DNA of 64,000 nt from positions 718 to 64,717 of the forward strand of contig JBBAFS010000002.1 of the NCBI GenBank assembly GCA_041655255.1. The letters run 5' to 3'. How positions within the stretch are numbered: position 1 is the stretch's first letter; each line of letters opens with the position of its first letter. Positions 12,137-27,396 of the stretch are shown here, piece after piece. A program made the translations under genes and the position numbers. The DNA is from Sphaerochaetaceae bacterium (GTDB lineage Bacteria; Spirochaetota; Spirochaetia; Sphaerochaetales; Sphaerochaetaceae). Under the pieces are notes generated by a model. It had not been told where the DNA came from. It searched no databases and saw nothing but the letters and a program-made list of their open reading frames with translations.

Positions 12137-13924
12137 TTGGAGATGAATATGAGTGCATTACCACATTGGGACCTCAGTTCCATTTACCCCTCACTTGAAA
12201 GTGAGTTATTTATTGCAGATATGAAAAACTTAGAGACCTTAGCCACACAGCTAGAGAAGCAACTTTCACAAGTGGAGCTTTTAGACGCCTCTTCATTACA
12301 AGAGATTTTAGAGACATACCAAAAGCTTTTTGATACTGCTTCAACACTGTATGCTTACACTCAAGCGATTGTGACAGTAAACACAAACGATGAGTTCGCT
12401 CTACGAAAACTTGGAGATGTCGAAAAAGCACTCTTAGATGTGCGAGCGAAACATGTAAAACTTCTCTCTTTTTTAGCTCATCATCAAAAAGAGATTCAGC
12501 CCCTCATCAAAAAAGGGGGAGATGTACACGATTATCGCTATGCTCTTGAAGAATTACTCCAAGAACAAAGTCACACCCTCAGTGAAAAAGAAGAGTCTCT
12601 TGCTGCTGATTTAAATAGAAGTGGCACCGAAGCATGGTCTCGCTTACAAGAGGCTATTAGTTCAAATGCCTCTACCATATGGGATGAGAAAAAAGGGATT
12701 GAAAAAACAGTGATTCAACTGAGATCTCTCGCTTTTGATCCTGATCGCTCAATTCGCAAAAAAGCGTTTGAGAAAGAGCTCTCAATATGGAAGCAACACG
12801 AAATAGCGTTCGCCTCAGCTCTTAATGGGGTAAAAGGGACAACTATTACATTAGATGGCAAAAGAGGCTACGCATCGCCTTTAGAGCGCTCTATGATAGA
12901 TTCACGAATTGATCAAACCATTTTAGATGCTCTTATTGGAACGATTGAACAAAATCTTGAAGTGTTTAGAAGATACCTTCGGGCAAAAGCGAACTATTTA
13001 GGTGTTCCTTCTCTCGCTTTTTACGATCTCTTTGCTCCAGTGGGGAAACATACAACAACATATAGTTATGCCCAAGCTCAAACTTTTATCGTTAAAGAAT
13101 TCACCCGCTTTCATCCACCGATGGGATCTTTTGCTCAAGAGGCGTTTGATCGCAATTGGATTGATAGTGAGCCTCGTAGTGGTAAAGTAGGGGGAGCGTA
13201 TTGTACCTCATTTCCTTTACGGCAAGAGAGTCGTATCTTAGCGAATTACGATTACACATTTGATGGGTTATCGACAATAGCTCATGAACTAGGGCATGCA
13301 TATCATGATCATGTGACAAACTCATTACCCTACTTATTACGCCAATACCCAATGACTCTTGCTGAGACCGCTTCAATTTTTAGCCAAGTAGTTATCTTTC
13401 AAGGTGCCTTACAAGATGCCGATGTCGATGCCTCTTTATCACTCATTGAGAGTTTCTTACAAGACTCGACTCAAGTGTGTGTCGATATCCTCTCACGTTA
13501 CTACTTTGAAAAAAATCTTTTTGAAAAGCGTGAGAAAGGGGAACTCCTTGCAAAAGAGTTATCTCAATTAATGATTGATGCTCAAAAAGCCTCATATGGT
13601 GAAGCTTTAGATGAGAGTGCCTTACACCCATACATGTGGGCAGTAAAAGGACACTACTACCGTAGTGATCTCTCCTTTTACAACTATCCGTATGCCTTTG
13701 GCCAACTCTTTGGTCTTGGGGTGTACCATCTAGCACAACAAGAGGGAGATAGCTTTGGCTCTCGATATGATGAACTACTTCGTCACACAGGACGCTCTAG
13801 TGCCCAAGATGTTGCTTCAACTGTTGGTATAGATATTACTAAGGCCTCTTTTTGGCAACAAGGAATTGATCTCATTAGTTCATATGTCGATCAATTTTGT
13901 AACCTCGTTGGCTACTCTGAGTAA
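12137..13924 (+). CDS. pepF: Oligoendopeptidase F, M3B family
   Basis: 595 aa, zinc motif HELGHAYH, typical PepF length. Confidence 0.88.
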   Translation: MEMNMSALPHWDLSSIYPSLESELFIADMKNLETLATQLEKQLSQVELLDASSLQEILETYQKLFDTASTLYAYTQAIVTVNTNDEFALRKLGDVEKALLDVRAKHVKLLSFLAHHQKEIQPLIKKGGDVHDYRYALEELLQEQSHTLSEKEESLAADLNRSGTEAWSRLQEAISSNASTIWDEKKGIEKTVIQLRSLAFDPDRSIRKKAFEKELSIWKQHEIAFASALNGVKGTTITLDGKRGYASPLERSMIDSRIDQTILDALIGTIEQNLEVFRRYLRAKANYLGVPSLAFYDLFAPVGKHTTTYSYAQAQTFIVKEFTRFHPPMGSFAQEAFDRNWIDSEPRSGKVGGAYCTSFPLRQESRILANYDYTFDGLSTIAHELGHAYHDHVTNSLPYLLRQYPMTLAETASIFSQVVIFQGALQDADVDASLSLIESFLQDSTQVCVDILSRYYFEKNLFEKREKGELLAKELSQLMIDAQKASYGEALDESALHPYMWAVKGHYYRSDLSFYNYPYAFGQLFGLGVYHLAQQEGDSFGSRYDELLRHTGRSSAQDVASTVGIDITKASFWQQGIDLISSYVDQFCNLVGYSE

Positions 13925-13930
13925 AAGTGC

Positions 13931-15049
13931 ATGATTGTAGAGTTAGTTGTTGAAAAAGTAGTCTCCCACGGTGAGGGCTTAGCTCGTTATAATAACGAAG
14001 TGGTCTTTATCAGTGATGTGCTTCCCGGCGAGCACATCACTGTAGAACTACGTGAGGAGAAAAAAGGGTTATACCGAGGGACTCTTCTCTCTATTGATAA
14101 GCCTTCATCACACAGAGTAACACCTCCATGCCCTTACTATGGGGTGTGTGGTGGGTGTGACTTTCAATATGTAGAGAGTTCTTACCAAGTAGAGCTCAAA
14201 GAGGAGATTGTTAAAGAGAACCTCAAACGGATTGGAAAAGTCGATTACAGATACACCTTTCTCCCCTCAGAAGTTGATCATCCATGGGCTTATCGTCATA
14301 GAGTTAAATTTCATAGAGATGAACAAAGCGGAGCTATAGGATTTTTAGGGAGAAAAAGTCACACGGTAATCGATATCGCATCTTGTCCAATATTAGTAGA
14401 GAACCTCAATAGGTTGTTATCTGAAAAACGGGAGATCTTACAACAGCAAAGTAGTTCAACCATTGAGGTGTTATCAAATCAAAGAGAACTCTCTTTTGAT
14501 GATACAACAATCCCATTTTACCTGAATGGAAAGACAATCTACGGTAGTGGAAATCTCTTTTTCCAATCTCACGCTTCACTTATTGAGCCGATGATTGACT
14601 TTGTTCAAAGACACACAGAAGGTGATCACATTGTTGATTTATACAGTGGAGTAGGAATGTTTGCCGCCTTTGTTGAATCAGCAGATAACAATGTCGTAGC
14701 TGTGGAGCGAGACAAAAAGGCTCTTAATGTTGCGAAAAAGAACCTCTCATACACCACCTTTTTTACTCAAAAAAGTGAATCATGGGCTCGTTCACACTCA
14801 CTAGCACAGTGCGATACCCTTATTGTTGACCCTCCACGGGTGGGAATAGATAACAAAGTGATTCAAGCTATTGGGAAGTTACAACCTAAAAAGATTATCT
14901 ACGTCTCATGTAACAGTGCCACTCTCGCTCGTGATATTCATCGCCTCAGAACGTACGGTTATGTTACAGAGATAGTACAACTGTTTGATCTGTATCCTCA
15001 GACAACACATGTGGAGACGATAGTATTGATGTCGAGGGTTAAGACCTGA
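13931..15049 (+). CDS. rlmD: 23S rRNA (uracil-C5)-methyltransferase RlmD/RumA family
   Basis: N-terminal TRAM-like domain, Fe-S cysteines CPYYGVCGGCDFQ plus a later Cys, SAM motif DLYSGVGMF, catalytic YVSCNSATLARD. Confidence 0.88.
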   Translation: MIVELVVEKVVSHGEGLARYNNEVVFISDVLPGEHITVELREEKKGLYRGTLLSIDKPSSHRVTPPCPYYGVCGGCDFQYVESSYQVELKEEIVKENLKRIGKVDYRYTFLPSEVDHPWAYRHRVKFHRDEQSGAIGFLGRKSHTVIDIASCPILVENLNRLLSEKREILQQQSSSTIEVLSNQRELSFDDTTIPFYLNGKTIYGSGNLFFQSHASLIEPMIDFVQRHTEGDHIVDLYSGVGMFAAFVESADNNVVAVERDKKALNVAKKNLSYTTFFTQKSESWARSHSLAQCDTLIVDPPRVGIDNKVIQAIGKLQPKKIIYVSCNSATLARDIHRLRTYGYVTEIVQLFDLYPQTTHVETIVLMSRVKT

Positions 15050-16641
15050 TAGGCGTTAAAATCTTAAACATAAAACTGCGTGTCATTTATCAGGATGAGT
15101 GCTGCCTGGATTAGCTACGAGAGGTTTTGTCATTGTATGAGCCTGCCTGCTTAGAGACTGGTACGGTGGCTTCGGTAATAGCAACCTCTCTTTATGAGAT
15201 TGGCCTTCGTCATAGGTTGCACACTCCATCGTTAGTATTTCTTGACAGAGGATGTGGAAGCTGCTAGCGCAGTTCCAATGAAAAGAAGATAGAGTAAACC
15301 AATAAATCCATAGTATAGTCTAGGTACATGGGCCACCAAGTGTCCGAGTGTTTTTACACTCCTGAACGAGACTTATTGGATATGTACTGGACAGCTATCT
15401 GTTACAAGGTCTCTCACTGATACATACAGACGAGAACTATCACATCTTTGAGACGGATGGAGTTATCGAGTAATGAAAAATGAGTATAAGGGAGGTGATA
15501 CCCAGTGAATAGCGATCCCTTTAAGGAATATGTTAAAGAGTCTGAACCGGACAAGCGGGACAAAGGTTATGCATGGCATACGGCCATTGTTCTGCAGGCG
15601 GTTGACGGACTTAAGACGTCAGAATACTTGGTACACACTGCAATTCGCAACATCGAAGGTGAAATTTCCTTTGAGCAAGCTAATACCCTTTTGCAGAGCT
15701 ATTATGAGGAGAACCCTGCCCGCGAAGCAGATGATCGTACTGAGGAGGCGGATAAAGTTTCGGCCAGAATTGCTGCACTTCTTTCAGAGAAAGCCTTCAG
15801 CTTTACTCCCAATGAGTACTTTTCCATTCACAGAAAGCTATTCACCGGCATCTATTCCCATGCGGGCGCGCCAGGGATTATAACATTACCAAAAAAGAGT
15901 GGGTGCTCAACGGAGCTACAGTGCTTTACGGAACTGCCACGGAGCTAAAAGCGACACTGAATTACGATTTCTCCGAGGAGAAAAAGTTCTCCTACAAGAA
16001 TCTTTCAATGGATGATATTATTCATCACCTTGCAGTCTTTATATCCAGGTTGTGGCAAATCCACGTCTTCGGTGAAGGCAATACCAGAGCGACTGCAGTG
16101 TTCTTTATCACATATCTTTGCACCCTTGGCTTTGATGTAACAAACGACATCTTTGCTGAGAATGCGTGGTATTTCCGCAATTCCCTTGTCAGGGCAAACT
16201 ATAACGACTTACAAAACGGGATCCACAAGACAACGAAGTTTCTTAAGCTGTTCTTAAGAAATTTACTGCTAAACGAAAAACATCAACTCCATAACCAGAC
16301 ATTACATATCAGCGAAACCTATATGGCACCGAGAAAAGTGAACATTGAGAGAGGAAAAGCGAACATTCAGGCCTCCTTTACAGCTAAGACGGCTTCTCAT
16401 GTGTGCACATTGCTAGAGGAATACGGCTTTCAGACGATCTTTGGAAGATCGAATGTTCAGGAAATCCTCGATCTGAAACCGACCAGAAGTAGTGCGCTAG
16501 TGAAAGAGATGGCAGAGAAAGGATTTGTCGAACCGGTAACTGGACACGGAAAAGGAAAGTACAGATTCATATTGCATAAGATTTGAGACGATGAAAGTCT
16601 CGCCTCTTGAAAAAGTCCCATGTTATGCGGGCTTCTAAACA
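15050..16641. mobile_element. Decayed integrated element inserted at the 3' end of rumA (no recombinase left)
   Basis: Visibly higher G+C than the flanks. It carries only a frameshifted Fic gene and a 455-nt ORF-free stretch. A diverged second copy of the rumA 3' end lies at its right edge. The left boundary may lie inside the last codons of rumA. Confidence 0.4.
15505..16586 (+). pseudogene. Fic/DOC-family protein, frameshifted
   Basis: GTG start with AGGGAGG SD. The N-terminal VbhA-like segment (LQAVDGLKTSEYL, NIEGEIS) is in one frame. DYNITKKEWVLNG..., the Fic motif HVFGEGNTRATAVF and a C-terminal wHTH continue in another frame. The frame switch is near 15865-15880. Confidence 0.75.
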
Positions 16642-16734
16642 TATGAATTTATTTCAGCGAACGTCGATGGTAGAAGAGATCACATGGACGTGTCGGGCCA
16701 CCTAGAGTGTGAGGTGGTAGTTCTGGCTCTTTAG
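16642..16734 (+). pseudogene. Displaced remnant of the original rumA 3' end
   Basis: Translation (T)YEFISANVDGRRDHMDVSGHLECEVVVLAL* aligns with the intact gene end TYGYVTEIVQLFDLYPQTTHVETIVLM (TY-x-[YF]-[VI]-[TS], D-x3-x-[ST]-x-H-[VL]-E). Its stop overlaps the convergent stop of the neighbouring minus-strand gene. Confidence 0.35.
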
Positions 16735-16946
16735 TGGGTAAAGAACCAGTATAAGAACCAAACAATCCCAATAAGTAGAAGAATGACAGGGGTAAAGACA
16801 ATAAATGCGCTGATAATCATCGCTAATATGTCTCCCTTCTCTAACTCCTCTTTTTTGATTGAGTCTTTCTCTTTTTTCTCAATCTCATCGACATCGAGAA
16901 CACGTTTAATTTTCCGTGGAAAGAGCATCGCTCCTCTCCTTATCAT
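16731..16946 (-). CDS. Small tail-anchored membrane protein, unknown function
   Basis: 71 aa (65 aa from the internal Met). Charged Lys/Glu-rich N-terminus and one C-terminal TM helix (ILAMIISAFIVFTPVILLLIGIVWFLYWFF). Overlaps the 3' end of oppF. Confidence 0.45.
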   Translation of the reverse strand: MIRRGAMLFPRKIKRVLDVDEIEKKEKDSIKKEELEKGDILAMIISAFIVFTPVILLLIGIVWFLYWFFTH

Positions 16947-18495
16947 CCCCTAGTAGTGGGTGGTGACACGCCACAAAGTGGTCTTTTTCAAGTTCTCTCC
17001 ATTGTGGTTCAACAACAGTACATATCTCTGTTTTATAACGACAACGGGTGTGGAACTTACACCCCTTAGGTGGATCAATTGGAGATGGTATATCTCCTTC
17101 TAATAATACTTCTTCACTTTTTTGGCTTCGATCGGTGGTCGGAATTGCAGCTAATAACGCTTCAGTGTATGGGTGCATTGTTCGAGTGAAGATCTTCTCA
17201 GTGGGAGCAAGTTCTACAATGTTTCCTAAATACATCACTCCAATACGATCACTGATGTATTTCACCACAGCTAAATCGTGACTAATAAAGAGGTATGTGA
17301 GATTAAGCTTCTCTTTTAAATCTTTTAATAAGTTAATAATTTGAGCCTGAATGGAGACATCCAGTGCACTGACAGCCTCATCACACACGATGAACTGAGG
17401 TCGTAGTGCTAAAGAGCGGGCAATCCCAATACGTTGACGCTGACCACCTGAGAATTGGTGAGGATAGCGGTGAATCATATATGGAGCTAGGCCACACTCT
17501 TTCATCACCTGCATTACATACTCTTGCATCTCTGGCCCATCTTGTTTAAAGAACCTGTGGGCTAAGAGCCCTTCTCCAATGATTTGTCCAACAGTCATTC
17601 GTGGATTCAGTGAAGAGTAGGGGTCTTGGAAGATCAATTGGATATCTCGTCGGAGGAGCCGCATCTCATTAAAGGTGAGACGACTGAGGTCTATACCACT
17701 ATCTCTCAACTTTTCATGTTTTTGAAACTCTTCATCATCGATATATTCAACTCTTTTAGCTTCAAGTTTCTCATGTGCCTGTATAAGTTTTTCTGTTACC
17801 TTCTCTAAGGCTTCCTCTTTTTGTTGTTTCATAAAAAGCAGTGAAGTAAGACGCTTTTGCTTTGCATCACTACGACGTTCTTTTTTTTGAGTTCGTGCAA
17901 GAGAACGCTCTAATTCAGCAATATGTAATTCAAGATCTTTTATCTCTTCATCGACAGAGTGTCGCTCTCTACTTAAACTGTACCAGTTGATAAGTAGTGG
18001 TATTACCGATGAAAGATCTTCAACGGTGATAAATCCTCCCACTAATTGAACGATATCTAAGTAGGCATTACGATACTCTTTCTCTTTTTCAAGTGATGTG
18101 TTTTGAGCAATAAAGATTGTTTCAGAGAGTTGTGCAGGGTCATCTTTCAGTCGCTCAAACTCTTTTACTGCTTCGTGGTACTCTTTTTCTAAAGAGTGAA
18201 GATGCTCTTTGTGTTTCACTAAACGTTGATACGTCTCTCGTACATACGCAGGGGCAAGGTCTTCTAACTTGCGTCCATAGTACATCGTCTTACCGTCAGT
18301 TTGACGATACAGTTGTAATAACACTCTTCCAAAAGTCGATTTTCCACATCCACTTTCACCAACTAACCCAAGAGTTTCACCTTGTATAATATCGACATTA
18401 ACACCATCGACAGCTTTGACACTTAACCCTTTGGTTTTTAAAGGAAAGTGTTGTTTGAGGTTTGTTATCTTAAATAGTGCTTGATCGTTACGCAT
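16906..18495 (-). CDS. oppF: Oligopeptide/dipeptide ABC transporter ATP-binding protein (OppF-like) with a large coiled-coil insertion
   Basis: Walker [22 protein letters not shown], signature FSGGQRQR, Walker B IVCDEAVSALD, C-terminal oligopeptide-ABC Cys motif. Likely start is ATG 18495, overlapping the oppD stop (ATGCGTAA). Confidence 0.88.
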   Translation of the reverse strand: MRNDQALFKITNLKQHFPLKTKGLSVKAVDGVNVDIIQGETLGLVGESGCGKSTFGRVLLQLYRQTDGKTMYYGRKLEDLAPAYVRETYQRLVKHKEHLHSLEKEYHEAVKEFERLKDDPAQLSETIFIAQNTSLEKEKEYRNAYLDIVQLVGGFITVEDLSSVIPLLINWYSLSRERHSVDEEIKDLELHIAELERSLARTQKKERRSDAKQKRLTSLLFMKQQKEEALEKVTEKLIQAHEKLEAKRVEYIDDEEFQKHEKLRDSGIDLSRLTFNEMRLLRRDIQLIFQDPYSSLNPRMTVGQIIGEGLLAHRFFKQDGPEMQEYVMQVMKECGLAPYMIHRYPHQFSGGQRQRIGIARSLALRPQFIVCDEAVSALDVSIQAQIINLLKDLKEKLNLTYLFISHDLAVVKYISDRIGVMYLGNIVELAPTEKIFTRTMHPYTEALLAAIPTTDRSQKSEEVLLEGDIPSPIDPPKGCKFHTRCRYKTEICTVVEPQWRELEKDHFVACHHPLLGDDKERSDALSTEN

Positions 18496-19477
18496 TACGG
18501 GCCACCTTATCGGGATAGAAACAGCGAATGGTATGCTTTTCTCCAACTTGTTCTAATTGTGGATGTTCATTGTGACACTTATCAGTTGCATACTTACATC
18601 GAGGAGAGAAAAAACACCCTTTAGGTAAATCGAGCGGGTGGGGGACGCTCCCTGGAATGACTTCTAGTTTGGTTCCCCCTTGTGTATCTAATCGGGGAAT
18701 TGAGAGCATTAACCCTTCGGTGTAGGGATGGCTGTATCTCCCATCTGAGAAAATAACTTCAACAGGAGCCATCTCTACAACTTCGCCACTATACATCACA
18801 GCGACATCATCAGCCATTTGGTTGATCACGCCAAGATCATGGGTGATAAATAAAATAGCGGTCCCTTTCTCTTTTTGTAGATCATTCATTAACTTGAGAA
18901 TCTGAGCTTGAATGGTAACATCCAATGCTGTCGTAGGCTCATCAGCAATGAGTAAATCGGGCTTACATGCTAAAGCCATAGCAATCATCACTCGTTGGCG
19001 CATCCCGCCAGAGAGTTGGTGAGGGTACTGCTTTGCTACTTGTTTTGGATTAGGAATCTTTACATCAGCGAGCATCTTTACCGATTGAAGAGCTGCCTCT
19101 TTTTTAGTCATCTCTTGGTGAACCATAAAGGCTTCACTAATTTGTCGTTCAATAGTAAACACAGGGTTTAAGCTTGTCATCGGTTCTTGGAAGATGACCG
19201 AAATAGCATTACCACGAATATGATATAATTCGCTTTCAGAAAGAGTAGTAAGTTCTTGACCTTTGAATATGACCGATCCTTGAGCAATGTACCCATTGCC
19301 ATCAAGAAGCTGTAAGATCGACATAGCCGATACCGATTTACCACAACCGCTTTCACCTACAACTCCCAACGTGCGTCCCTCTTCAACAGCGTAGGAGACT
19401 CCGTTTACAGCCTTTACAGTACCTCTTTTGGTTGTAAAGTAGGTATGTAGATCTCGTAGTTCTAATAATATTGCCAC
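18488..19477 (-). CDS. oppD: Oligopeptide/dipeptide ABC transporter ATP-binding protein (OppD-like)
   Basis: [29 protein letters not shown]-terminal [16 protein letters not shown] motif. Confidence 0.92.
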
Positions 19478-19488
19478 ACTAAATCTCC

Positions 19489-21285
19489 TTACCTATCGTT
19501 TGTTTTTGGGTCGATTGCATCACGCATTCCATCACCCACCATGTTGATACTCACTGTAGCTAAACTCAAAGCAATAGCTGGGAAGATCCATCTCCATGCG
19601 TAGTTCGCCATGACAGTCGAATCGTTACACCCATATAACATATTTCCCCATGTTGCATTTGGTTCATTCACCCCAAAACCTAAGTAACTAAGTGAAGACT
19701 CATACAACATACATAGCGCAAAACTGAGAGTGAGGTTCACTAATATTACCGTTATCACATTCGGTAGAATGTGTTTAAAGATAATTTTAAGTTCAGTAAT
19801 TCCCATCGCTTTCGCAGCTGTAACAAACTCTTGTTCTCGAGCTGCCAACATCTGACCACGTACCAAGCGTGCTAAGGGGGGCCAAGAGAGGAGACCTAAG
19901 ATCACCATGATCATCGAAATTCGTCCCGTCTCACTAATTCTACTTCCTATAATAGCCGAAAGAATCATCGCTAAAGGTAGAAACGGAATCGCATTTACCA
20001 CTTCAGCAATCCTCATAATCAGCATATCGGGCTTTCCTCCGTAATATCCAGAAAATGCCCCTAAGATAATTCCTATAAAGGCACTGATGATGACAGCAAT
20101 CGCTCCGATGGTTAAGGTGACTCGTCCACCACTGAGTAATCGAGTTAACAAGTCTCGACCATATTGGTCAGTTCCCATCAGGTACCCTTTTAATCCCCAG
20201 CTATGAATCTTGCCGTCTGCATCAATTGCGTAGTTTTGAAAATATGAAGAAGTAATACCCACAATGTTATTCAACTTAGGAGCTTTACTTTGTTTGTAAT
20301 TATTTCTCCCCCATGAAACAACACTCCCATCTGAAAGCAGTGCTGTGAAGTGTCCTCTTCCTGCACTTACGGCAATAGCGTTTCCTTGAGCAAGGGAAGG
20401 GACTTGTTGCACGCCATAATCATCTCCACCCCATACATGAATAACACCATCATCAGTGACGGCAGCAGCTGATCGCTCGGTGATAGCAACATCAACAATA
20501 GAGCCTTGAATCTCTTGTGGGATATAACTAAAGGGGGTCTCACGCGAAGAGAGTGTTACGGCCTCTCCTTGAGTTGTGAGGGCAACCGCCAAGGTTGTAT
20601 TAGCACTTATTTTACTAAAAGAGCCTTGTCTCTCTTCAGGAATGGGGATATTTATAAGGTTTGTATTTCCCCAAAAGAAGATTCTTCCATCCTCTGTTAG
20701 TGCTAAAGAGATCTGATGACCAGCTAAGACTTGTTTCACTCGAGAGCTTTGTACTTGGGGAGGAATGTTACTTAACATAAATCGATCATTTCCCCAGGTG
20801 TAGACTTTACCATTCTCATCTAATGCCAAGGCATGGTCCAATCCTGCTGAGACTTGAATCACTTTAGCATTAATTTGAGGAAGATTTTGTAACTTAGGAG
20901 TGAGAGTTCCCCACTGACGAATCACTCCATCACTACCAACACCGAGGCCGTATACAGAGCCTTGATCAATTGAGACGACATTGCCTGAAATCTCTTTGGC
21001 ATACTTCATATATGATAACGTGGGTTTCGTGTTTTTCTGAGTTGGGTCTTGGAATTGAAGGTCCAAGGGGAAAAAGAGCGGTAAGATAAAGACTGCTAAG
21101 AAAATTGCGAAAAACACATAAAGGCCTAACATGGCACTCCAGTTTTGTCGAAAATTACGTAGCATCGTCCGATAAGGACTTTGAACTTGCTCCTCTTCAA
21201 AAATTGAGAGAGTTGCTGTACGACGACCAAAAAAGAGACTTTTAAGGACATCAAAGAAATGTGAACCGTAGGTACGTTTTGCCAT
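19489..21285 (-). CDS. oppC: OppC/DppC-type ABC permease with an inserted seven-bladed RCC1-like beta-propeller
   Basis: TM1 at aa 50-73. Seven repeats ending in xxDGxxxxWG span aa 100-365. Then canonical GTDQYGRDLL and the BPD-transport (EAA-loop) core. Confidence 0.85.
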   Translation of the reverse strand: MAKRTYGSHFFDVLKSLFFGRRTATLSIFEEEQVQSPYRTMLRNFRQNWSAMLGLYVFFAIFLAVFILPLFFPLDLQFQDPTQKNTKPTLSYMKYAKEISGNVVSIDQGSVYGLGVGSDGVIRQWGTLTPKLQNLPQINAKVIQVSAGLDHALALDENGKVYTWGNDRFMLSNIPPQVQSSRVKQVLAGHQISLALTEDGRIFFWGNTNLINIPIPEERQGSFSKISANTTLAVALTTQGEAVTLSSRETPFSYIPQEIQGSIVDVAITERSAAAVTDDGVIHVWGGDDYGVQQVPSLAQGNAIAVSAGRGHFTALLSDGSVVSWGRNNYKQSKAPKLNNIVGITSSYFQNYAIDADGKIHSWGLKGYLMGTDQYGRDLLTRLLSGGRVTLTIGAIAVIISAFIGIILGAFSGYYGGKPDMLIMRIAEVVNAIPFLPLAMILSAIIGSRISETGRISMIMVILGLLSWPPLARLVRGQMLAAREQEFVTAAKAMGITELKIIFKHILPNVITVILVNLTLSFALCMLYESSLSYLGFGVNEPNATWGNMLYGCNDSTVMANYAWRWIFPAIALSLATVSINMVGDGMRDAIDPKTNDR

Positions 21286-21296
21286 TGAATCTACTC

Positions 21297-22286
21297 CTAA
21301 TCTAATTTGACACGAGGGTCGGCAAACCCATAGGAGAGATCCATCAAAAGGTTGCCAATTAAGCTCAGAACAAGATAGAACATCACCATTGCCAACGAGA
21401 CGGCAAAGTCTTGTTGATTCAGAGCGTCAATGATGACTTTCCCCATCCCATTCCATAAGAAGGTCCGTTCAATAACAACTGAACCGCTGAATATAGAGAT
21501 GAACCAGCCAGTCATAATTGTAATAAAAGGAATCAACGCATTACGAAAAGCATGAGAGTAGATGACTACTTTCTCATTTAATCCTTTAGCTCGAGCTGTC
21601 CGAATATAATCCATCGAAAGAGCTTCAATCATCGTCGCTCTTACATACCGAGTTAATCCGCCAAGTGAAGTAAAGACCATCACCAATAAAGGAAGGGCCA
21701 TGTGGTACATCTTATCGAAGAACATCCTCATAGGAGTTCCCCTTAAAGCGGGAGTTTGCACTCCACTGATGGGAAAGATTGGTAACTTAACCGCAAAGAG
21801 GAAAATAAACAGAAGTGCAATAACAAAAAATGGGAGACTATAGCCGATAATTGTTACCACTTGAACAGTTGAATCAAATTTAGTGTTTCGCCTCACTGCA
21901 GTAGCTATACCAAGTGGTATGGTGATAGCAAAGACAGGAATTAGCGACCACACATTGAGCATGATGGTGTTTTTCATAGGAACACCTATCATCTGCCTGA
22001 CGGGCATCTTATACGTCAGAGAGTAACCAAAATCGCCTTTGAGCGTGTTGAGCAACCAGGTGAAATATTGGACAACAATTGGTTTATCTAAACCGAGTTT
22101 TTTTACAGCATCTTGGTAGCGAGCTTCATACTCTTCGGGTTTCATACTAGTTTTACTCCCCTCTAACATCATTCTGGCAGGATCACCAGGTACTGATTTA
22201 TAGAGTGTGAAAAGTAGTACCGATGCAATTAAAAAGACAACCACTATGTATAAGAGGCGCCTTAAGACATACTTTAACATGGTCAT
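21297..22286 (-). CDS. oppB: OppB/DppB-type ABC permease
   Basis: N-terminus MLKYVLRRLLYIVVVF, six TM segments, EAA loop DYIRTARAKGL. Confidence 0.92.
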   Translation of the reverse strand: MTMLKYVLRRLLYIVVVFLIASVLLFTLYKSVPGDPARMMLEGSKTSMKPEEYEARYQDAVKKLGLDKPIVVQYFTWLLNTLKGDFGYSLTYKMPVRQMIGVPMKNTIMLNVWSLIPVFAITIPLGIATAVRRNTKFDSTVQVVTIIGYSLPFFVIALLFIFLFAVKLPIFPISGVQTPALRGTPMRMFFDKMYHMALPLLVMVFTSLGGLTRYVRATMIEALSMDYIRTARAKGLNEKVVIYSHAFRNALIPFITIMTGWFISIFSGSVVIERTFLWNGMGKVIIDALNQQDFAVSLAMVMFYLVLSLIGNLLMDLSYGFADPRVKLD

Positions 22287-22365
22287 GATTCCTTTGGTGA
22301 GATATATCTAGGGCAACACAAGTGTTGCCCTAAGTTGAGTATATGCATCAAAAGTTCGTATGTGA

Positions 22366-24195
22366 CTATTTTACGTCAGCTCGAACGATAGCATATGGGA
22401 AATCCCACGTTGAAGACGAATCGTAGTTGACAATCTTTGGGTTAAAGAAGTCGTGGTAGATGTCTGAATACAGTGGAATATCTGGAAGTAAGTAGTTCCA
22501 TCTCTTTTGGAATCCGATCCATTTGTTCACCCAGCCTTGAAGGTCTTGAGGATCAGTTCGTTTCATATCTAAAGAAATCCTCTCAAGTTCAACGTCTGAG
22601 ATGAAGTTGGAGTTGTAATCACCAAAGTACTCTGGATCTGTTGAGTAGTAGTACCAGTATGCCTGTGTGGTAGCAAAACCGGTTCCTAAGTTAAACATAC
22701 CGTAGACAGGCTTATCGATATTCTCTTTGTAGAGGTGATCGAGAAGAACTGCAAAGTCGACAGTTGTTCCGTTGATTTGCATTCCAATCTTTCGTACTTC
22801 AGGAACGAGCATAGCTGAGATAAGATCACTAACAGGGTTATTAGCTGTGTTTGCCCACTCAATAATCAGTGGCATTAATTGGCCATCAACTCGTTTGTAA
22901 CGGAGGGTATCAACACCTTTTTGGTAGTTTCTACCATCTTTGTTATAAATCCAACCATCATCGATGAGCTCTTGCTCAGCTTTCTGTAAGTTGTATGGAT
23001 AAGCATTAAGCTCTTTGTCTAAGAGATCTGCATTTTCCATATATTCCCACATTGAAGCGCCGTAGTAACCGTTGACGATGATTCCATAACCACCGGTGTA
23101 CTGTCGTGCAAATTCGTTTCGATCAAGGCTGTATGCGATAGCTCGACGAACTGCGTCATATTGAGTTGGTCCAAAGTCACAAGCAAAAGCAATTTTTCCA
23201 TATCCATAACGTGGGTATGAAGCATAATCAACACGCCCTTCATCATGAAGGTCTAAACCACGGGTAATTTGATCGCCACCACTGATACCTTGAAGCATAT
23301 CAATAGCGCCGGTTCTCAGTTCGTCCATTTGAGTGGCTGTGTTGGTCAGTTTGATGATGATTCGGTAAATTGATCCTTTTGCACCATCATATGAGCCTAA
23401 GAAGTTAGGGTTTAACACAACACTAGCAGTTGAGTCTGCTGGGTTGAAGTTTTCAAATTGGTAAGGGCCACTTGTTACCATTGGTTTGTAACGATAGCCA
23501 GTGTTGGTATCTAAGATGGTCTTTCTTAAAAGATCAACATTATAACCAGAGGTGAGAGAAGCACCACGACCTGAATCGACAACATCGACTCCAGGAGCAA
23601 GAACTGCTAAGGGAAGTGGTCCAACTGAGACTAATGAGAGGTCAAAGAAGTAGGGGAGCTCTTCAGCTTCAATGGTAATGGAGAATGAGTAATCTCCGAG
23701 AAGTCTGACGCCACTGAAGACATTGCTCTCTCCTTTGTGGAAAGCGTCATAACCGACATATTCTGGACCTACACCATATTGGGCACCAATTTCAGTTGCC
23801 TCAGGGGATGCCATGTATAAAAGTCCAAAGACGTAATCTTTAGCAGTGATTTTGGATCCATCGTTGTAGACGAGATTATTTGCGATGTTGAATGTGTATG
23901 TCTTCGAACCGTCAGCGTTGTCCACTGCATCCCAAGACTTTACTGCTATAGGGTTAATCTCATAGCGACCTTCTTTGGTCCACGATACTGTTTCATAGCC
24001 ACTCATCAATAATTTGAGGTAGTGGTTAGTTGCACTGTTTGTCCATCCATCAAAGAAGTCGGCATTCAATTGAGTTGAAGATCCCAAGATTACTTGAGAT
24101 TCAACTTGAGGAGCCGCCTCTTGTGCACCTTTAGCAAATGCACCAGATAAGAACACAACAGTAATGAGTAATAGAACTAATAGTTTTTTGCTCAT
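22366..24195 (-). CDS. oppA: Family-5 extracellular solute-binding protein (OppA-like)
   Basis: 609 aa, signal peptide. Size and position at the head of the oppBCDF genes. Confidence 0.85.
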   Translation of the reverse strand: MSKKLLVLLLITVVFLSGAFAKGAQEAAPQVESQVILGSSTQLNADFFDGWTNSATNHYLKLLMSGYETVSWTKEGRYEINPIAVKSWDAVDNADGSKTYTFNIANNLVYNDGSKITAKDYVFGLLYMASPEATEIGAQYGVGPEYVGYDAFHKGESNVFSGVRLLGDYSFSITIEAEELPYFFDLSLVSVGPLPLAVLAPGVDVVDSGRGASLTSGYNVDLLRKTILDTNTGYRYKPMVTSGPYQFENFNPADSTASVVLNPNFLGSYDGAKGSIYRIIIKLTNTATQMDELRTGAIDMLQGISGGDQITRGLDLHDEGRVDYASYPRYGYGKIAFACDFGPTQYDAVRRAIAYSLDRNEFARQYTGGYGIIVNGYYGASMWEYMENADLLDKELNAYPYNLQKAEQELIDDGWIYNKDGRNYQKGVDTLRYKRVDGQLMPLIIEWANTANNPVSDLISAMLVPEVRKIGMQINGTTVDFAVLLDHLYKENIDKPVYGMFNLGTGFATTQAYWYYYSTDPEYFGDYNSNFISDVELERISLDMKRTDPQDLQGWVNKWIGFQKRWNYLLPDIPLYSDIYHDFFNPKIVNYDSSSTWDFPYAIVRADVK

Positions 24196-24406
24196 GTTCT
24201 TTTCTCTCCTTTAGAGTATTTTGTTCATCATACAGAACATATGTGAAACATTGTAGACAATATGGGGGCGAATGTCATCACTTTTCTTGAGAGCGCAATG
24301 TAGTGGAAAAAGTGGTATGGAATGAATAGAGGCTCATTTCTATGACATTGGGGGAACTCTTGTCTATATAGACACTGAAGAACTATATGTAGGAGATGAG
24401 GTAGTA

Positions 24407-26314
24407 TCATTTTTGTATAAGACGACTTGCTAAAAAGTCGGCAAGATTTTGATCAGTACAGTAGATATAACACCCCTTTAAGCCACGACTCATCAATGTC
24501 TTATAGGTATTACGAATAATCTCATCAGCTTCTTTAAGAGCCTGTTGATCCCCATTTCTTATTGGTCCAATAAGACCATGAAGTGATGTGTCTGTTTTAG
24601 CTCGTTTGGTGAAATCGGTAATCACTTTGTTATCTTCGTATCTTAAATCATCTCCAATAATCACACCAACGTAGTTAAACTCGAGCCCTTGAGTTGTATG
24701 GATACACCCTACTTGGTTAATAGAGCCTGCACTTATTGCATAGGTGCTATCATTTGATAAATTCCACTGCATCGCAAAATCATCGATCACAATATCTGCT
24801 TCATCTGGGGAATCCTTTTTGCTAATCCATGGCCAACAATACCCAGCAACTACGCGAGATTTGTTATCTTCTCTATTTTTCTCAAAGATCTGTTGTTGCA
24901 TTTTTGTGGGGTTGTCAAAAATCTTAAAGTCGTACTCGTTGGTGTGTAAAAAAGGATGAGCTGTCTGATCTCTGATTCCCAATACATCATCTAACCACAT
25001 CAGATACCCATCTGAACCGTTACATCTGAATTGAGAAGGGAGTTCTCCTTCTGTGACTTCAGCATCAAAGTAATGTGCCCAGTGGATAATAGAGTCACGT
25101 CTTCCATAATCTTTTGCTGTCACTTTTTGATCTTCATCTAAAAAGAAAAAGCTACACGTTGCTGCGTTGATAATCTCTTTAATTTGGTTCTCTCCTACAA
25201 TACGTGGACCGTATTGAGATCGTTCATTTAACCGGTGAGCTTCATCAACAATCAGTGTGCCATAATCACCACTTTCAGCATCGATAAAAGCTCCTGAACT
25301 TTTAAAGAGGGTAGAGATATGTTTTTTGGTATACCCCTCTTTTAATTTCGCTTCAAAGACATTGCGAGGTGCACTATTTTTTGTCACATAGGCCACCACT
25401 TGATCTCGTTTTGTTAACTGAACAAGAAGATTGATTGCTACAACAGTCTTTCCTGTCCCCGGTCCCCCTTTGACAATAAAGACCCTCTTTTTGTTATCGA
25501 GAGCACTTTGCTCACTTAAAGCGAGCATCTGTTCATACACAATCTTTTGTTCATCAATGAGGCGAAACTCCTCTTTCCCTTGTAACATTGCCATAAGGCT
25601 ATCTTGTAAACTCTTAGAGGGACGAATCTCTCCGTTTTCAATAAGGTAGAGAGTGTGCTTGTCATCACCTTTACGGATATATCGTTTGATAAAATCTTGA
25701 AGTTTCTTTCGATCATCACGGGTATATAAAGGGGAGTCTTCTAAAAGTTCTTCAAAATAGGGTTGAAACAGCGGATCGTTTTTAACGGGTCGGTAGTTAT
25801 GTAAATAGGCACAACTTGATAAGTGAATTGGGATAGTGGCAATGTGGGTGTTAAAATCACTTAAAAAAGAGCGATACGAAGAGACTTGGTACGAGGGGTG
25901 AGGTGTCTTTACTAAAGAACCACCCATAGCTGTTTCAATCTCGGTCACTTCATGTTCGGGATTATATTGAAGTAGTTGCTCAACCCCTTTAAGAGGTTGT
26001 ACTTTCTCCCACTGTTTTAACTCAATGATCAAAGCTCGTTTGTTATCATGTTCATCTAAGCCACTGAGGATAAAATCGATCCGTTTTGATGTGTGAGGAA
26101 TATTAAATTCAATAGCCACTCCAGTATTGGATGGGATTTCTTGATCGTTGAGTAGATGAAACATAAAGTTCTGAGAGTTCATCCATGATCGTCTTTCACT
26201 AGCACTCACTTTTTTAGCAAGTTTCTTTAACAGCTGTTGTTCAATTTTTTTATCGATTGAGCTATCTTCAACATCTTTGAGAAACTGTTTTTTATCAGCG
26301 GTGTATACAAGCAT
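24407..26314 (-). CDS. PD-(D/E)xK nuclease-like N-domain fused to a DUF2075 (Schlafen group-III type) SF1 helicase/ATPase
   Basis: N-terminal E69 / D80 (RIDFIL) / E98-x-K100 (IIELKQW). Walker A GGPGTGKT (283-290), Walker B LIVDEAHR (355-361). C-terminal IHTTQGLEFNYVGVIIG helicase motif. Confidence 0.8.
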   Translation of the reverse strand: MLVYTADKKQFLKDVEDSSIDKKIEQQLLKKLAKKVSASERRSWMNSQNFMFHLLNDQEIPSNTGVAIEFNIPHTSKRIDFILSGLDEHDNKRALIIELKQWEKVQPLKGVEQLLQYNPEHEVTEIETAMGGSLVKTPHPSYQVSSYRSFLSDFNTHIATIPIHLSSCAYLHNYRPVKNDPLFQPYFEELLEDSPLYTRDDRKKLQDFIKRYIRKGDDKHTLYLIENGEIRPSKSLQDSLMAMLQGKEEFRLIDEQKIVYEQMLALSEQSALDNKKRVFIVKGGPGTGKTVVAINLLVQLTKRDQVVAYVTKNSAPRNVFEAKLKEGYTKKHISTLFKSSGAFIDAESGDYGTLIVDEAHRLNERSQYGPRIVGENQIKEIINAATCSFFFLDEDQKVTAKDYGRRDSIIHWAHYFDAEVTEGELPSQFRCNGSDGYLMWLDDVLGIRDQTAHPFLHTNEYDFKIFDNPTKMQQQIFEKNREDNKSRVVAGYCWPWISKKDSPDEADIVIDDFAMQWNLSNDSTYAISAGSINQVGCIHTTQGLEFNYVGVIIGDDLRYEDNKVITDFTKRAKTDTSLHGLIGPIRNGDQQALKEADEIIRNTYKTLMSRGLKGCYIYCTDQNLADFLASRLIQK

Positions 26315-26321
26315 CCCTATC

Positions 26322-26663
26322 TTACTCCAGCTCAGTATATTTTTTACTACTACCGTAGGTCTTCTCTACTGCGTAATGCTCTTCATTGGTCTGTAACTTC
26401 TCTTTGATGATCGTTGGGATATCGAGTCCAAGAGCATCGGCAAACTGAACAGCATAGATGAACACATCGGCAAGCTCTTGAGCCATCTGCTGTTGTTTCT
26501 CTTTGACTATTAAATCATCTGAAGACCACTGAAAGCACTCAAGGAGTTCAGATGCTTCTAAACTTAAGGAGATAGCAAGATCTTTAGGGTTATGGAACTG
26601 TTTCCAAGAACGCTTATCTCGGAACGCTAAAATTTCGTCTACGGGTAAATATGTCTCTTTCAT
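26322..26663 (-). CDS. MazG-like (all-alpha) nucleoside-triphosphate pyrophosphohydrolase
   Basis: About 113 aa from MKETY. EASELLE ... ELADV matches the ExxE...ExxD metal-binding pattern of the MazG/DCTPP1-like family. The ORF-track N-extension to 26720 is probably spurious. Confidence 0.75.
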   Translation of the reverse strand: MKETYLPVDEILAFRDKRSWKQFHNPKDLAISLSLEASELLECFQWSSDDLIVKEKQQQMAQELADVFIYAVQFADALGLDIPTIIKEKLQTNEEHYAVEKTYGSSKKYTELE

Positions 26664-26736
26664 ACCACCAAGTGTAACATAAAAGAGACACTTCGGTGAA
26701 AGAACAAAAGAATAACACATCCTTTTTTTTAAAAAG

Positions 26737-27396
26737 GTGTGCTACTATATACACATGGTTATGGACGATGTATTAGACCCACATATGTTTATGATGTGTG
26801 AGAGTCTCGATTTGGAAGTCGCCTCCTCTTTAGATGAGGGTTATAGTATCTCCTTGTTACAAAAAGATGAGTTACCTTTATTGTTTGACTTAGTGACAAG
26901 AAATCGTGCTTTAGTGCAAGACGAAGAGGCTCACTTCTATTATGATCGAGTCTTTCGTAAAGATGAGAAACAATTCTTCTCTCAGTGTTACTTACTCCGT
27001 GATGATCAGAGCTCTCAAGTCATTGGCTCTATTGCCTTATGGAAAGCGTATAACGTTTTTCATTCGATTCAATGGTTCTCAGTTGAGCGAGCGTATCGAG
27101 AGAAGGGTCTAGCACGCTCTCTTTTTTCACACGTTGTGAAACAACTTAGTGAGAAAGATATGCCCCTCTATTTCCACAGTAGATTAACCCACTTTCAAGC
27201 AGTGAACCTCTTTTTAGATTTTGGTGGGAAATTTATTAAAGATCAGTATCTGGGAAATAAAGAAAATGGTGTATTTGAAAATGTTCCAGCATTGATGAAG
27301 GTATTACCTCTTAAGAGTATTAACCGAATGCAATTTGTTGCAGCTCCTCAAGAGTTCTTAGATGCGTTATCTCCCAAAGAGGAGTTAGAGATCTAA
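26737..27396 (+). CDS. GNAT-family N-acetyltransferase (putative)
   Basis: WFSVERAYREKGLARSLFSHVV resembles the acetyl-CoA-binding Q/RxxGxG/A segment. The start codon is uncertain. Confidence 0.5.
   Translation: MCYYIHMVMDDVLDPHMFMMCESLDLEVASSLDEGYSISLLQKDELPLLFDLVTRNRALVQDEEAHFYYDRVFRKDEKQFFSQCYLLRDDQSSQVIGSIALWKAYNVFHSIQWFSVERAYREKGLARSLFSHVVKQLSEKDMPLYFHSRLTHFQAVNLFLDFGGKFIKDQYLGNKENGVFENVPALMKVLPLKSINRMQFVAAPQEFLDALSPKEELEI

Follow-up and report, generated by a model that had tools for sequence, protein, structure and literature searches.

A BLIP-II-type propeller predicted within a loop of an OppC-type permease of Clostridia and spirochaetes

Why should the permease of a peptide importer carry a whole folded domain in one of its loops? 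The question is raised by a gene in a 64,000-nucleotide stretch of DNA from a Sphaerochaetaceae bacterium (NCBI GenBank assembly GCA_041655255.1, contig JBBAFS010000002.1, positions 718 to 64,717 of the forward strand; hereafter the window), in which an OppC permease of an ATP-binding cassette (ABC) importer is interrupted by what a first-pass annotation, made from the letters alone, took to be a seven-bladed RCC1-like propeller. Opp/Dpp importers are among the best-studied bacterial systems for the uptake of nutrient and signalling peptides, and their first full structures appeared in 2024-2025; to our knowledge, no Opp/Dpp system that has been solved or described bears a folded domain on a permease loop. 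The annotation likewise knew of no characterised importer with this architecture, and our literature searches returned none, nor any published description of an OppC-propeller fusion. We report here that the architecture is real and widespread, and that it has gone unstudied.

The gene divides into an N-terminal part with the first transmembrane helix (TM1), the propeller, and the remainder of the transmembrane domain (TMD), as follows.

19489..21285, minus strand: OppC permease with inserted propeller, 598 amino acids, whole gene (translation; Pfam OppC_N, RCC1_2 and BPD_transp_1; AlphaFold model)
21067..21285, minus strand: OppC residues 1-73, basic cytoplasmic N-terminus and TM1 (hydropathy, K/R count, model helix)
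20989..21066, minus strand: OppC residues 74-99, canonical post-TM1 motif, then lead-in to blade 1 (end of the OppC_N profile; invariant columns)
20191..20988, minus strand: OppC residues 100-365, predicted BLIP-II-type RCC1_2 propeller, seven blades of three strands each (Pfam, PDB, AlphaFold, Foldseek)
19489..20190, minus strand: OppC residues 366-598, GTDQYGRD motif, TM2-TM6 and EAA coupling loop, the canonical TMD (match to 8z21_B; Pfam BPD_transp_1)

Positions 20191-20988 of the window translate exactly to OppC residues 100-365, and the permease on both sides of them is readily recognised. Upstream, hydropathy peaks at residues 53-71, the AlphaFold model has a helix at 49-71, and the Pfam OppC_N domain covers residues 36-88 (E=2e-9); downstream, the next transmembrane segment lies at 393-411 and BPD_transp_1 covers residues 405-595 (E=5e-33), both profiles scoring above their cut-offs. 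The post-TM1 motif FQDPTQxNxxP is kept before the insert, with Q83, N85 and P88 invariant; the insertion begins after P88, approximately 276 residues are spliced in before GTDxxGRD, and the canonical loop sequence GLKGYLMGTDQYGRD is kept after it. In a search of PDB sequences, residues 366-595 matched residues 80-301 of E. coli OppC (8z21_B, E=3e-49), so that residue 80 of the E. coli protein aligns with residue 366 here, and the modelled C-terminal part matched the same chain in Foldseek with a TM-score of 0.66 normalised to the target. An EAA-type sequence, AAKAMGITELKIIFKHILPN, can be read in the translation. The protein falls below the NCBIfam equivalog cut-off for Opp4C (301 bits against 350), as expected for a protein that is interrupted. 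The propeller is thus a clean insertion in the short TM1-TM2 loop of an otherwise canonical Opp/Dpp permease, which agrees with the order of parts, TM1 and then the insert before GTDxxGRD, that the first-pass annotation had proposed.

Since the protein is homologous to OppC and DppC of solved structure (8z21, 8z1v, 8j5q) and follows the positive-inside rule (8 K/R among the 49 N-terminal residues), the loop that bears the insert would be periplasmic and would lie on the face where the substrate-binding protein (SBP) docks; the same placement had been made earlier from general OppC topology. For comparison we took the PepT-family (TC 3.A.1.5) structures of E. coli OppBCDF (8z21) and DppABCDF (8z1v) and of M. 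tuberculosis OppABCD (8j5q) and DppABCD (8wd9). Their OppC/DppC chains share with ours the OppC_N/TM1 region, GTDxxGRD and the BPD_transp_1 core with its EAA loop, and the partners are alike (an SBP_bac_5 protein, OppB and two ATPases whose oligo_HPY tail is rich in Cys); however, the solved chains are 287-302 amino acids long and join TM1 to GTD by about 20 residues of loop, where this protein has the insertion of about 276 residues.

The identity of the insert is supported by several comparisons. All seven repeat motifs that had been noted are present in the translation (GSDGVIRQWG, DENGKVYTWG, TEDGRIFFWG, TTQGEAVTL, TDDGVIHVWG, LSDGSVVSWG and DADGKIHSWG), with WG pairs at OppC residues 125, 164, 205, 285, 325 and 363, and the seven repeats, of about 40 residues each, start at residues 101, 140, 181, 221, 261, 301 and 339. 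The Pfam check that had been suggested was significant for both profiles, RCC1_2 scoring 95 bits (E=1.4e-27, cut-off 22) and RCC1 24.8 bits (cut-off 21.7); the whole-domain model WD40_RLD matched at E=3.6e-33, yet short of its cut-off of 150. Among PDB sequences, the best match of the insert was BLIP-II (1e-17), followed by RCC1, UVR8 and HERC2. An AlphaFold2 model built with 41 homologues has a predicted local distance difference test score of 85-94 over residues 100-365 and 21 strands there, that is, seven times three. Its top Foldseek matches are again BLIP-II (1jtd_B/3qi0; TM-score 0.78-0.79 normalised to BLIP-II, root-mean-square deviation 2.4-3.1 Å, 28-31% identity), and UVR8 and the ectodomain propeller of ACR4 CRINKLY come next. 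Motifs, profiles, PDB sequences and fold comparison thus bear out the seven RCC1/BLIP-II repeats, and the model predicts a compact seven-bladed propeller of the BLIP-II type, with three-stranded blades, rather than the four-stranded eukaryotic RCC1 type.

BLIP-II of Streptomyces exfoliatus (1jtd, 3qhy, 3qi0) resembles the OppC domain in having seven three-stranded antiparallel blades in about 270 residues, RCC1_2 repeats and an extracytoplasmic location, but it is secreted as a free protein, whose targets are class A beta-lactamases, whereas the OppC propeller is an internal insert of a membrane permease. We therefore place the modelled propeller in the same fold and repeat family as BLIP-II and do not file it as a beta-lactamase inhibitor. 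The CRINKLY4 (ACR4) ectodomain (7a0j; TM-score 0.76) likewise places a BLIP-II-like propeller with seven blades outside the cell, as part of a membrane protein, but it belongs to a plant receptor kinase and not to a transporter, has a pore-filling N-terminal strand and conserved disulfides, and is 18% identical. BLIP-II is also the top structural neighbour of the CRINKLY4 propeller (10.1101/2020.08.10.245050).

We examined the distribution of the fusion by a scan of relatives in which each species was represented by one genome, most of these being metagenome bins. Of 223 relatives, the best 80 were examined as loci, with their genes identified by a search of all open reading frames, and all 80 span the linker, the propeller and the GTD junction. 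The fusion is therefore present in at least 80 species genomes, which belong to Sphaerochaetaceae, Spirochaetales, one 'Treponema' bin and many Clostridia (Oscillospiraceae, Ruminococcaceae and Lachnospiraceae). Cultured carriers include Pseudoflavonifractor capillosus ATCC 29799, P. intestinihominis, Sellimonas intestinalis and S. catena. Of 300 Clostridia genomes sampled evenly, 13 have the fusion, and within Sphaerochaetaceae its occurrence is patchy (4 of 24 other genera). The best 120 database matches (53-99% identity) all pair RCC1 with BPD_transp_1, and where they are named at all, the names are limited to 'ABC transporter permease subunit' or peptide/nickel permease. The fusion is thus not rare; our literature searches found no functional assignment for it. 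The design is common in gut Clostridia, cultured species among them, and appears to have spread across a phylum boundary into spirochaetes.

A search with the insert alone was less informative: in a library of 1.84 billion representatives it returned 79,011 clusters at E<=1e-3, but the top matches are proteins of 1,400-7,000 amino acids and the output is swamped by giant multi-propeller proteins, whose scores add over the repeats, so that it shows the abundance of RCC1_2 and gives no count of fusions. In the 1.74-Mb genome from which the window comes, the OppC propeller is the sole RCC1 protein. Two loci need separate comment. One lies on a 5.6-kb contig (L081, CAKXAF010000178.1) of a metagenome-assembled genome labelled 'uncultured thaumarchaeote'; since the tree places it with a Clostridia bin, it is almost certainly a binning error. 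In another (L088) the permease appears split by frameshift into three pieces; we rejected this split, as the scaffold contains runs of N.

The fusion is under purifying selection. Mean column identity over the propeller is 62% in 18 sequences from two phyla, and the stalk of canonical residues that flanks the insert on both sides is conserved as well. The propeller was present in 64 of 64 sampled operons from the two phyla, at 44-80% identity. Judged by tree length (propeller 12.3, OppC membrane core 5.8, SBP 11.6), it evolves about twice as fast as the membrane core of its own protein and about as fast as the SBP.

The operon around oppC consists of six tightly packed genes on the minus strand (16731-24195), in the order SBP-OppB-OppC-OppD-OppF-small membrane protein. 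The five partners of OppC are listed here.

22366..24195, minus strand: SBP, 609 amino acids, SBP_bac_5, cluster C (Pfam E=8e-42; nearest solved structure OppA 9p48_A, 5e-27)
21297..22286, minus strand: OppB permease, 329 amino acids (Pfam BPD_transp_1_N and BPD_transp_1; NCBIfam Opp4B 2e-84)
18488..19477, minus strand: OppD ATPase, 329 amino acids (Pfam ABC_tran and oligo_HPY)
16906..18546, minus strand: OppF ATPase, 546 amino acids, with a coiled-coil insert of about 200 amino acids between Walker A and Q-loop, here called the arm (Pfam ABC_tran in two stretches and oligo_HPY)
16731..16946, minus strand: small, tail-anchored membrane protein (sequence; conservation after OppF)

The best NCBIfam models for the operon are Opp4B, Opp4C and OppF/DppF, and both ATPases keep a readable Walker A, Q-loop, signature, Walker B and H-loop. 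Judged by their sequences, the parts look intact and the whole looks like a working importer of the Opp/Dpp type (PepT family).

Across the 80 species loci the gene order of the window is kept wherever the contig is long enough, with the exception of two loci in which the SBP gene stands at the end of the operon instead. OppF orthologues come in two forms, a long one (490-608 amino acids) with the coiled coil and a short one (334-376 amino acids), and the small protein follows either form in nearly all loci. Four plain sister operons from the sampled Clostridia (L090, L091, L092 and L094), the closest relatives without a propeller, have the same order of SBP, OppB, OppC, OppD and OppF but lack both propeller and arm (OppC 299-301 amino acids, OppF about 325), and their SBPs lack several loops; their identity to the window proteins is 53-60% for OppD, 57-60% for OppF, 44-46% for the OppC TMD and about 25% for the SBP. 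The small protein follows three of the four, and in L092 it was seen by profile search alone (G208). A profile of this protein found exactly one copy per genome and matched in 20 of the 300 Clostridia; of the 13 genomes with a propeller, 11 have the small protein on the contig that bears the propeller, 3-4 kb downstream of it, and several of the remaining matches follow plain Opp operons without propeller and without OppF arm.

We placed these events on a tree of concatenated OppB, OppC TMD, OppD and OppF core (1,209 columns, 68 operons), rooted on the propeller-less sisters. On this tree, which like our others came from a quick search and has its outgroups on long branches, the propeller is one change and the propeller clade has 100% support in the Shimodaira-Hasegawa-like approximate likelihood ratio test: the propeller was gained once. 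For the OppF arm the tree requires three changes, the simplest reading being one gain on the propeller stem and two losses. All spirochaete forms and those Clostridial forms that branch early have the arm; one clade of 36 operons (Pseudoflavonifractor, Acutalibacter, Roseburia, Eisenbergiella and others) and a single other lineage do not. On at least two occasions, then, the arm was lost and the propeller stayed, and the small protein predates the propeller. The first-pass annotation had considered propeller, OppF coiled coil and small membrane protein together; with the arm lost at least twice and the small protein also in plain sisters, they do not form one package. The propeller-less sisters and the arm-less clade in turn provide natural controls for experiments.

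One candidate for loss of the propeller, a plain OppC of 304 amino acids (P0361, L087), was not counted, as it lies on a 1.5-kb contig with 2.6x coverage. It groups with a propeller form (support 99/93) and its TMD is 88% identical to that form, while its N-terminus and TM1 are unrelated; it may have arisen by a natural recombination that replaced this part and took out the propeller, or be a chimera made in assembly.

The copies from spirochaetes fall into a single well-supported clade, next to Clostridial forms that bear the arm, which fits one transfer from Clostridia to spirochaetes, the direction being suggested by the much greater diversity of the Clostridial copies. The SBPs differ between the two groups in their anchors. 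All 16 full-length spirochaete SBPs have a signal of the signal-peptidase-I type without lipobox cysteine, that of the window ending AFA|KG, whereas all Clostridial SBPs have a lipobox and a long Ser/Thr/Glu-rich tether. From the sequences this looks like adaptation to the type of envelope after transfer across phyla. The propeller was kept through this change of the SBP from lipid-anchored to free, in the diderm Sphaerochaetaceae.

What, then, might the propeller do? Large periplasmic domains on the TMD of a type I importer have a precedent in E. coli MalFGK2-E, where the P2 domain of MalF, immunoglobulin-like and about 180 amino acids long, is placed between TM3 and TM4 and has been demonstrated to contact the SBP, MalE. 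In the E. coli Dpp structures (DppBCDF and DppABCDF) each permease has six helices with the TM1-TM2 region in the periplasm, that region of DppB forms a scoop motif that occupies the cleft of DppA, DppB pairs with DppD and DppC with DppF, and most of the periplasmic surface of both permeases lies under the docked SBP (PMC12136057). By homology, the OppC propeller would occupy the pseudo-symmetric counterpart of the OppB/DppB scoop, in the half-transporter that couples to the arm-bearing OppF. Because the SBP covers most of that face, a domain of 270 residues in the TM1-TM2 connection could hardly avoid it, and a propeller 45 Å across at this loop would have to stand beside the docked SBP. We envisage the propeller as a fixed platform for docking proteins, placed at the rim of the site where the SBP lands; most likely it would contact the SBP and capture, orient or retain it during the cycle. 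Such a role would be analogous to that of MalF P2 in holding MalE, though not in fold or position: both are large periplasmic domains from a TMD loop of a type I importer, but P2 is immunoglobulin-like and lies between TM3 and TM4, here a propeller of 270 amino acids lies between TM1 and TM2 of OppC, and contact with the SBP has been shown for P2 alone. A docking platform at the SBP rim that most probably engages the SBP is the explanation towards which we lean, although we would put it at somewhat less than an even prospect. The SBPs of propeller-type operons carry loops that are absent from plain sister SBPs (window SBP residues ~200-235 and ~420-435).

Several results weigh against an SBP-holding role. 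We compared rates of evolution among seven components by taking their branch lengths on one fixed tree of 62 operons and comparing the residuals, a weak method. Known contacts ranked at the top (OppD-OppF rho 0.53, SBP-OppB 0.50, OppB-OppC TMD 0.44), and the method therefore has signal. The propeller and the SBP covaried at rho 0.20, below propeller-small protein (0.34) and propeller-OppF (0.26), while propeller-OppC TMD gave 0.04; with a concatenated baseline the value for propeller and SBP was -0.40. Rate covariation thus does not favour a specific propeller-SBP interface, although this is weak evidence. Furthermore, the best-conserved positions of the propeller are those of the generic RCC1_2 signature (AGxxH, WG and the linker Pro), with no evident binding patch, and comparison with the plain sister SBPs revealed no extra SBP domain that could serve as an obvious handle.

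The low covariation of propeller and SBP would fit a platform that docks some other protein and thereby couples the production of peptides to their uptake. Candidates for such a partner would be a secreted or wall-bound protease or peptidase, a cell-wall enzyme of the penicillin-binding protein (PBP)/beta-lactamase fold, by analogy with BLIP-II, or a structure of the cell envelope. The closest solved fold, BLIP-II, is a secreted protein-binding propeller, RCC1_2 propellers abound in extracellular proteins of giant size, and a gene for an Amidase_3 cell-wall hydrolase lies near one of the loci. On the other side, the genes that recur in the 80 neighbourhoods are, besides those of the operon, limited to that of the cytoplasmic oligoendopeptidase PepF, with none for an extracellular enzyme or other partner, and the genome of the window has no other RCC1 protein. 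We regard a partner other than the SBP as possible but unlikely, and the stricter form of the proposal, in which the propeller is a dedicated receptor for a second extracellular protein such as a PBP/beta-lactamase-fold or peptide-releasing enzyme and not a holder of the SBP, as a little less likely again. If the latter were true, the importer would have the enzyme that makes its cargo physically coupled to it, which would be a principle new to ABC importers. Whichever protein is bound, its identity would show how an importer gains an extra extracellular interaction surface, and could reveal a new way to recruit binding proteins or cargo-producing enzymes to a transporter.

The recurrent PepF gene also bears on what the operon imports. 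It encodes an M3B peptidase without signal peptide. In about 30 Clostridial loci (approximately half; for example L044:1176-3440) it is the next gene upstream of the SBP gene, and in three further loci it lies close downstream. Besides the six operon genes and PepF, no gene was recurrent in the 80 neighbourhoods. No spirochaete locus had an adjacent PepF, so that the link is one of Clostridial loci alone. The window does contain a gene of this kind:

12137..13924, plus strand: oligoendopeptidase F-like M3 peptidase gene (Pfam Peptidase_M3 and Peptidase_M3_N)

It is situated 2.8 kb past the end of the operon, is convergent with it and is divergent in sequence, and we give it little weight, its link to the operon being uncertain. 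Oligoendopeptidase F of the M3B type cleaves medium-length oligopeptides. With all its parts assigned to the peptide/nickel (PepT) family and PepF next to it in Clostridial loci, the operon would appear to import oligopeptides that are then cleaved in the cytoplasm.

Imported peptides of some length, as the frequent PepF neighbour suggests, are also the starting point for a proposal in which the propeller binds peptide or polypeptide cargo directly, pre-concentrating long peptides or holding their overhanging ends before passing the peptides on to the SBP or the channel. The central face of a propeller is often a site of peptide binding, and this general property speaks for the proposal as well. 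We nevertheless consider it improbable: no conserved non-structural pocket could be identified from the sequence, a complete and conserved SBP should suffice for capture, and we know of no precedent.

The genome of the window encodes a second OppC paralogue with an insert (P0399, 536 amino acids; G000 contig 27, L089:6153-7763, minus strand). Its insert of about 250 amino acids is charged, probably helical, unrelated to the propeller and without Pfam match, and is placed in the same loop between TM1 and GTDxxGRD; inserts of this type are conserved in 64 protein clusters, nearly all from Sphaerochaetaceae/Spirochaetia. With a second, unrelated insert at the same position, the loop is therefore a site at which accessory domains recur.

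Such tolerance of insertion at one site, together with the fact that conservation in the propeller falls mostly on fold-determining positions, would also suit a decoration without ligand, which might stabilise the TM1 cross-over or the assembly, or shield the transporter, and might persist since its removal disrupts folding. Yet its presence in every one of the sampled operons, through a change of envelope type, indicates a stronger constraint than one would expect of a neutral passenger, and the plain OppC described above (P0361), a doubtful case, is the single propeller-less derivative that was seen; we think a purely structural role quite improbable, slightly more so than direct binding of cargo.

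Least probable of all, and very doubtful in our view, is the signalling or mechanotransmission envisaged in the first-pass annotation, in which propeller, OppF arm and small protein would form a transmembrane relay as in MacB, LolCDE and FtsEX: propeller and arm would by DppC-DppF homology sit on the same half-transporter and the propeller shows weak positive rate covariation with OppF and with the small protein, but those type VII machines have a four-helix TMD with the periplasmic domain between TM1 and TM2 and no SBP, whereas this system has the six-helix fold of a type I importer (BPD_transp_1 with TM2-TM6 here), an SBP gene, intact ATPases and, in Clostridia, a PepF neighbour, the arm has been lost from the 36-member clade and one further lineage with the propeller kept, the small protein is likewise found with plain operons in which propeller and arm are both absent, and none of the genes that recur in the 80 neighbourhoods encodes a regulator or kinase.

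Some details of the operon remain to be recorded. The probable true start of OppF is the ATG at 18495, and orthologues of the small protein, which are 61-71 amino acids long, suggest that it starts at Met7 (16928), giving 65 amino acids; it has the motif PLEKxDxxAM followed by a transmembrane helix. A match of the small protein to the VraH family (E=0.0014, 18.5 bits against a cut-off of 40) was rejected as probably due to composition. A search with Rfam found no riboswitch or leader in positions 15000-27000 of the window. Both ATPases end in a four-cysteine motif, that of OppD with spacing 6/7/18. In E. coli DppD the ligands of a [4Fe-4S] cluster are Cys284, Cys290, Cys297 and Cys315 (PMC12136057). 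The spacing in OppD is identical to that of these ligands, and OppD and OppF therefore both probably bind iron-sulfur clusters.

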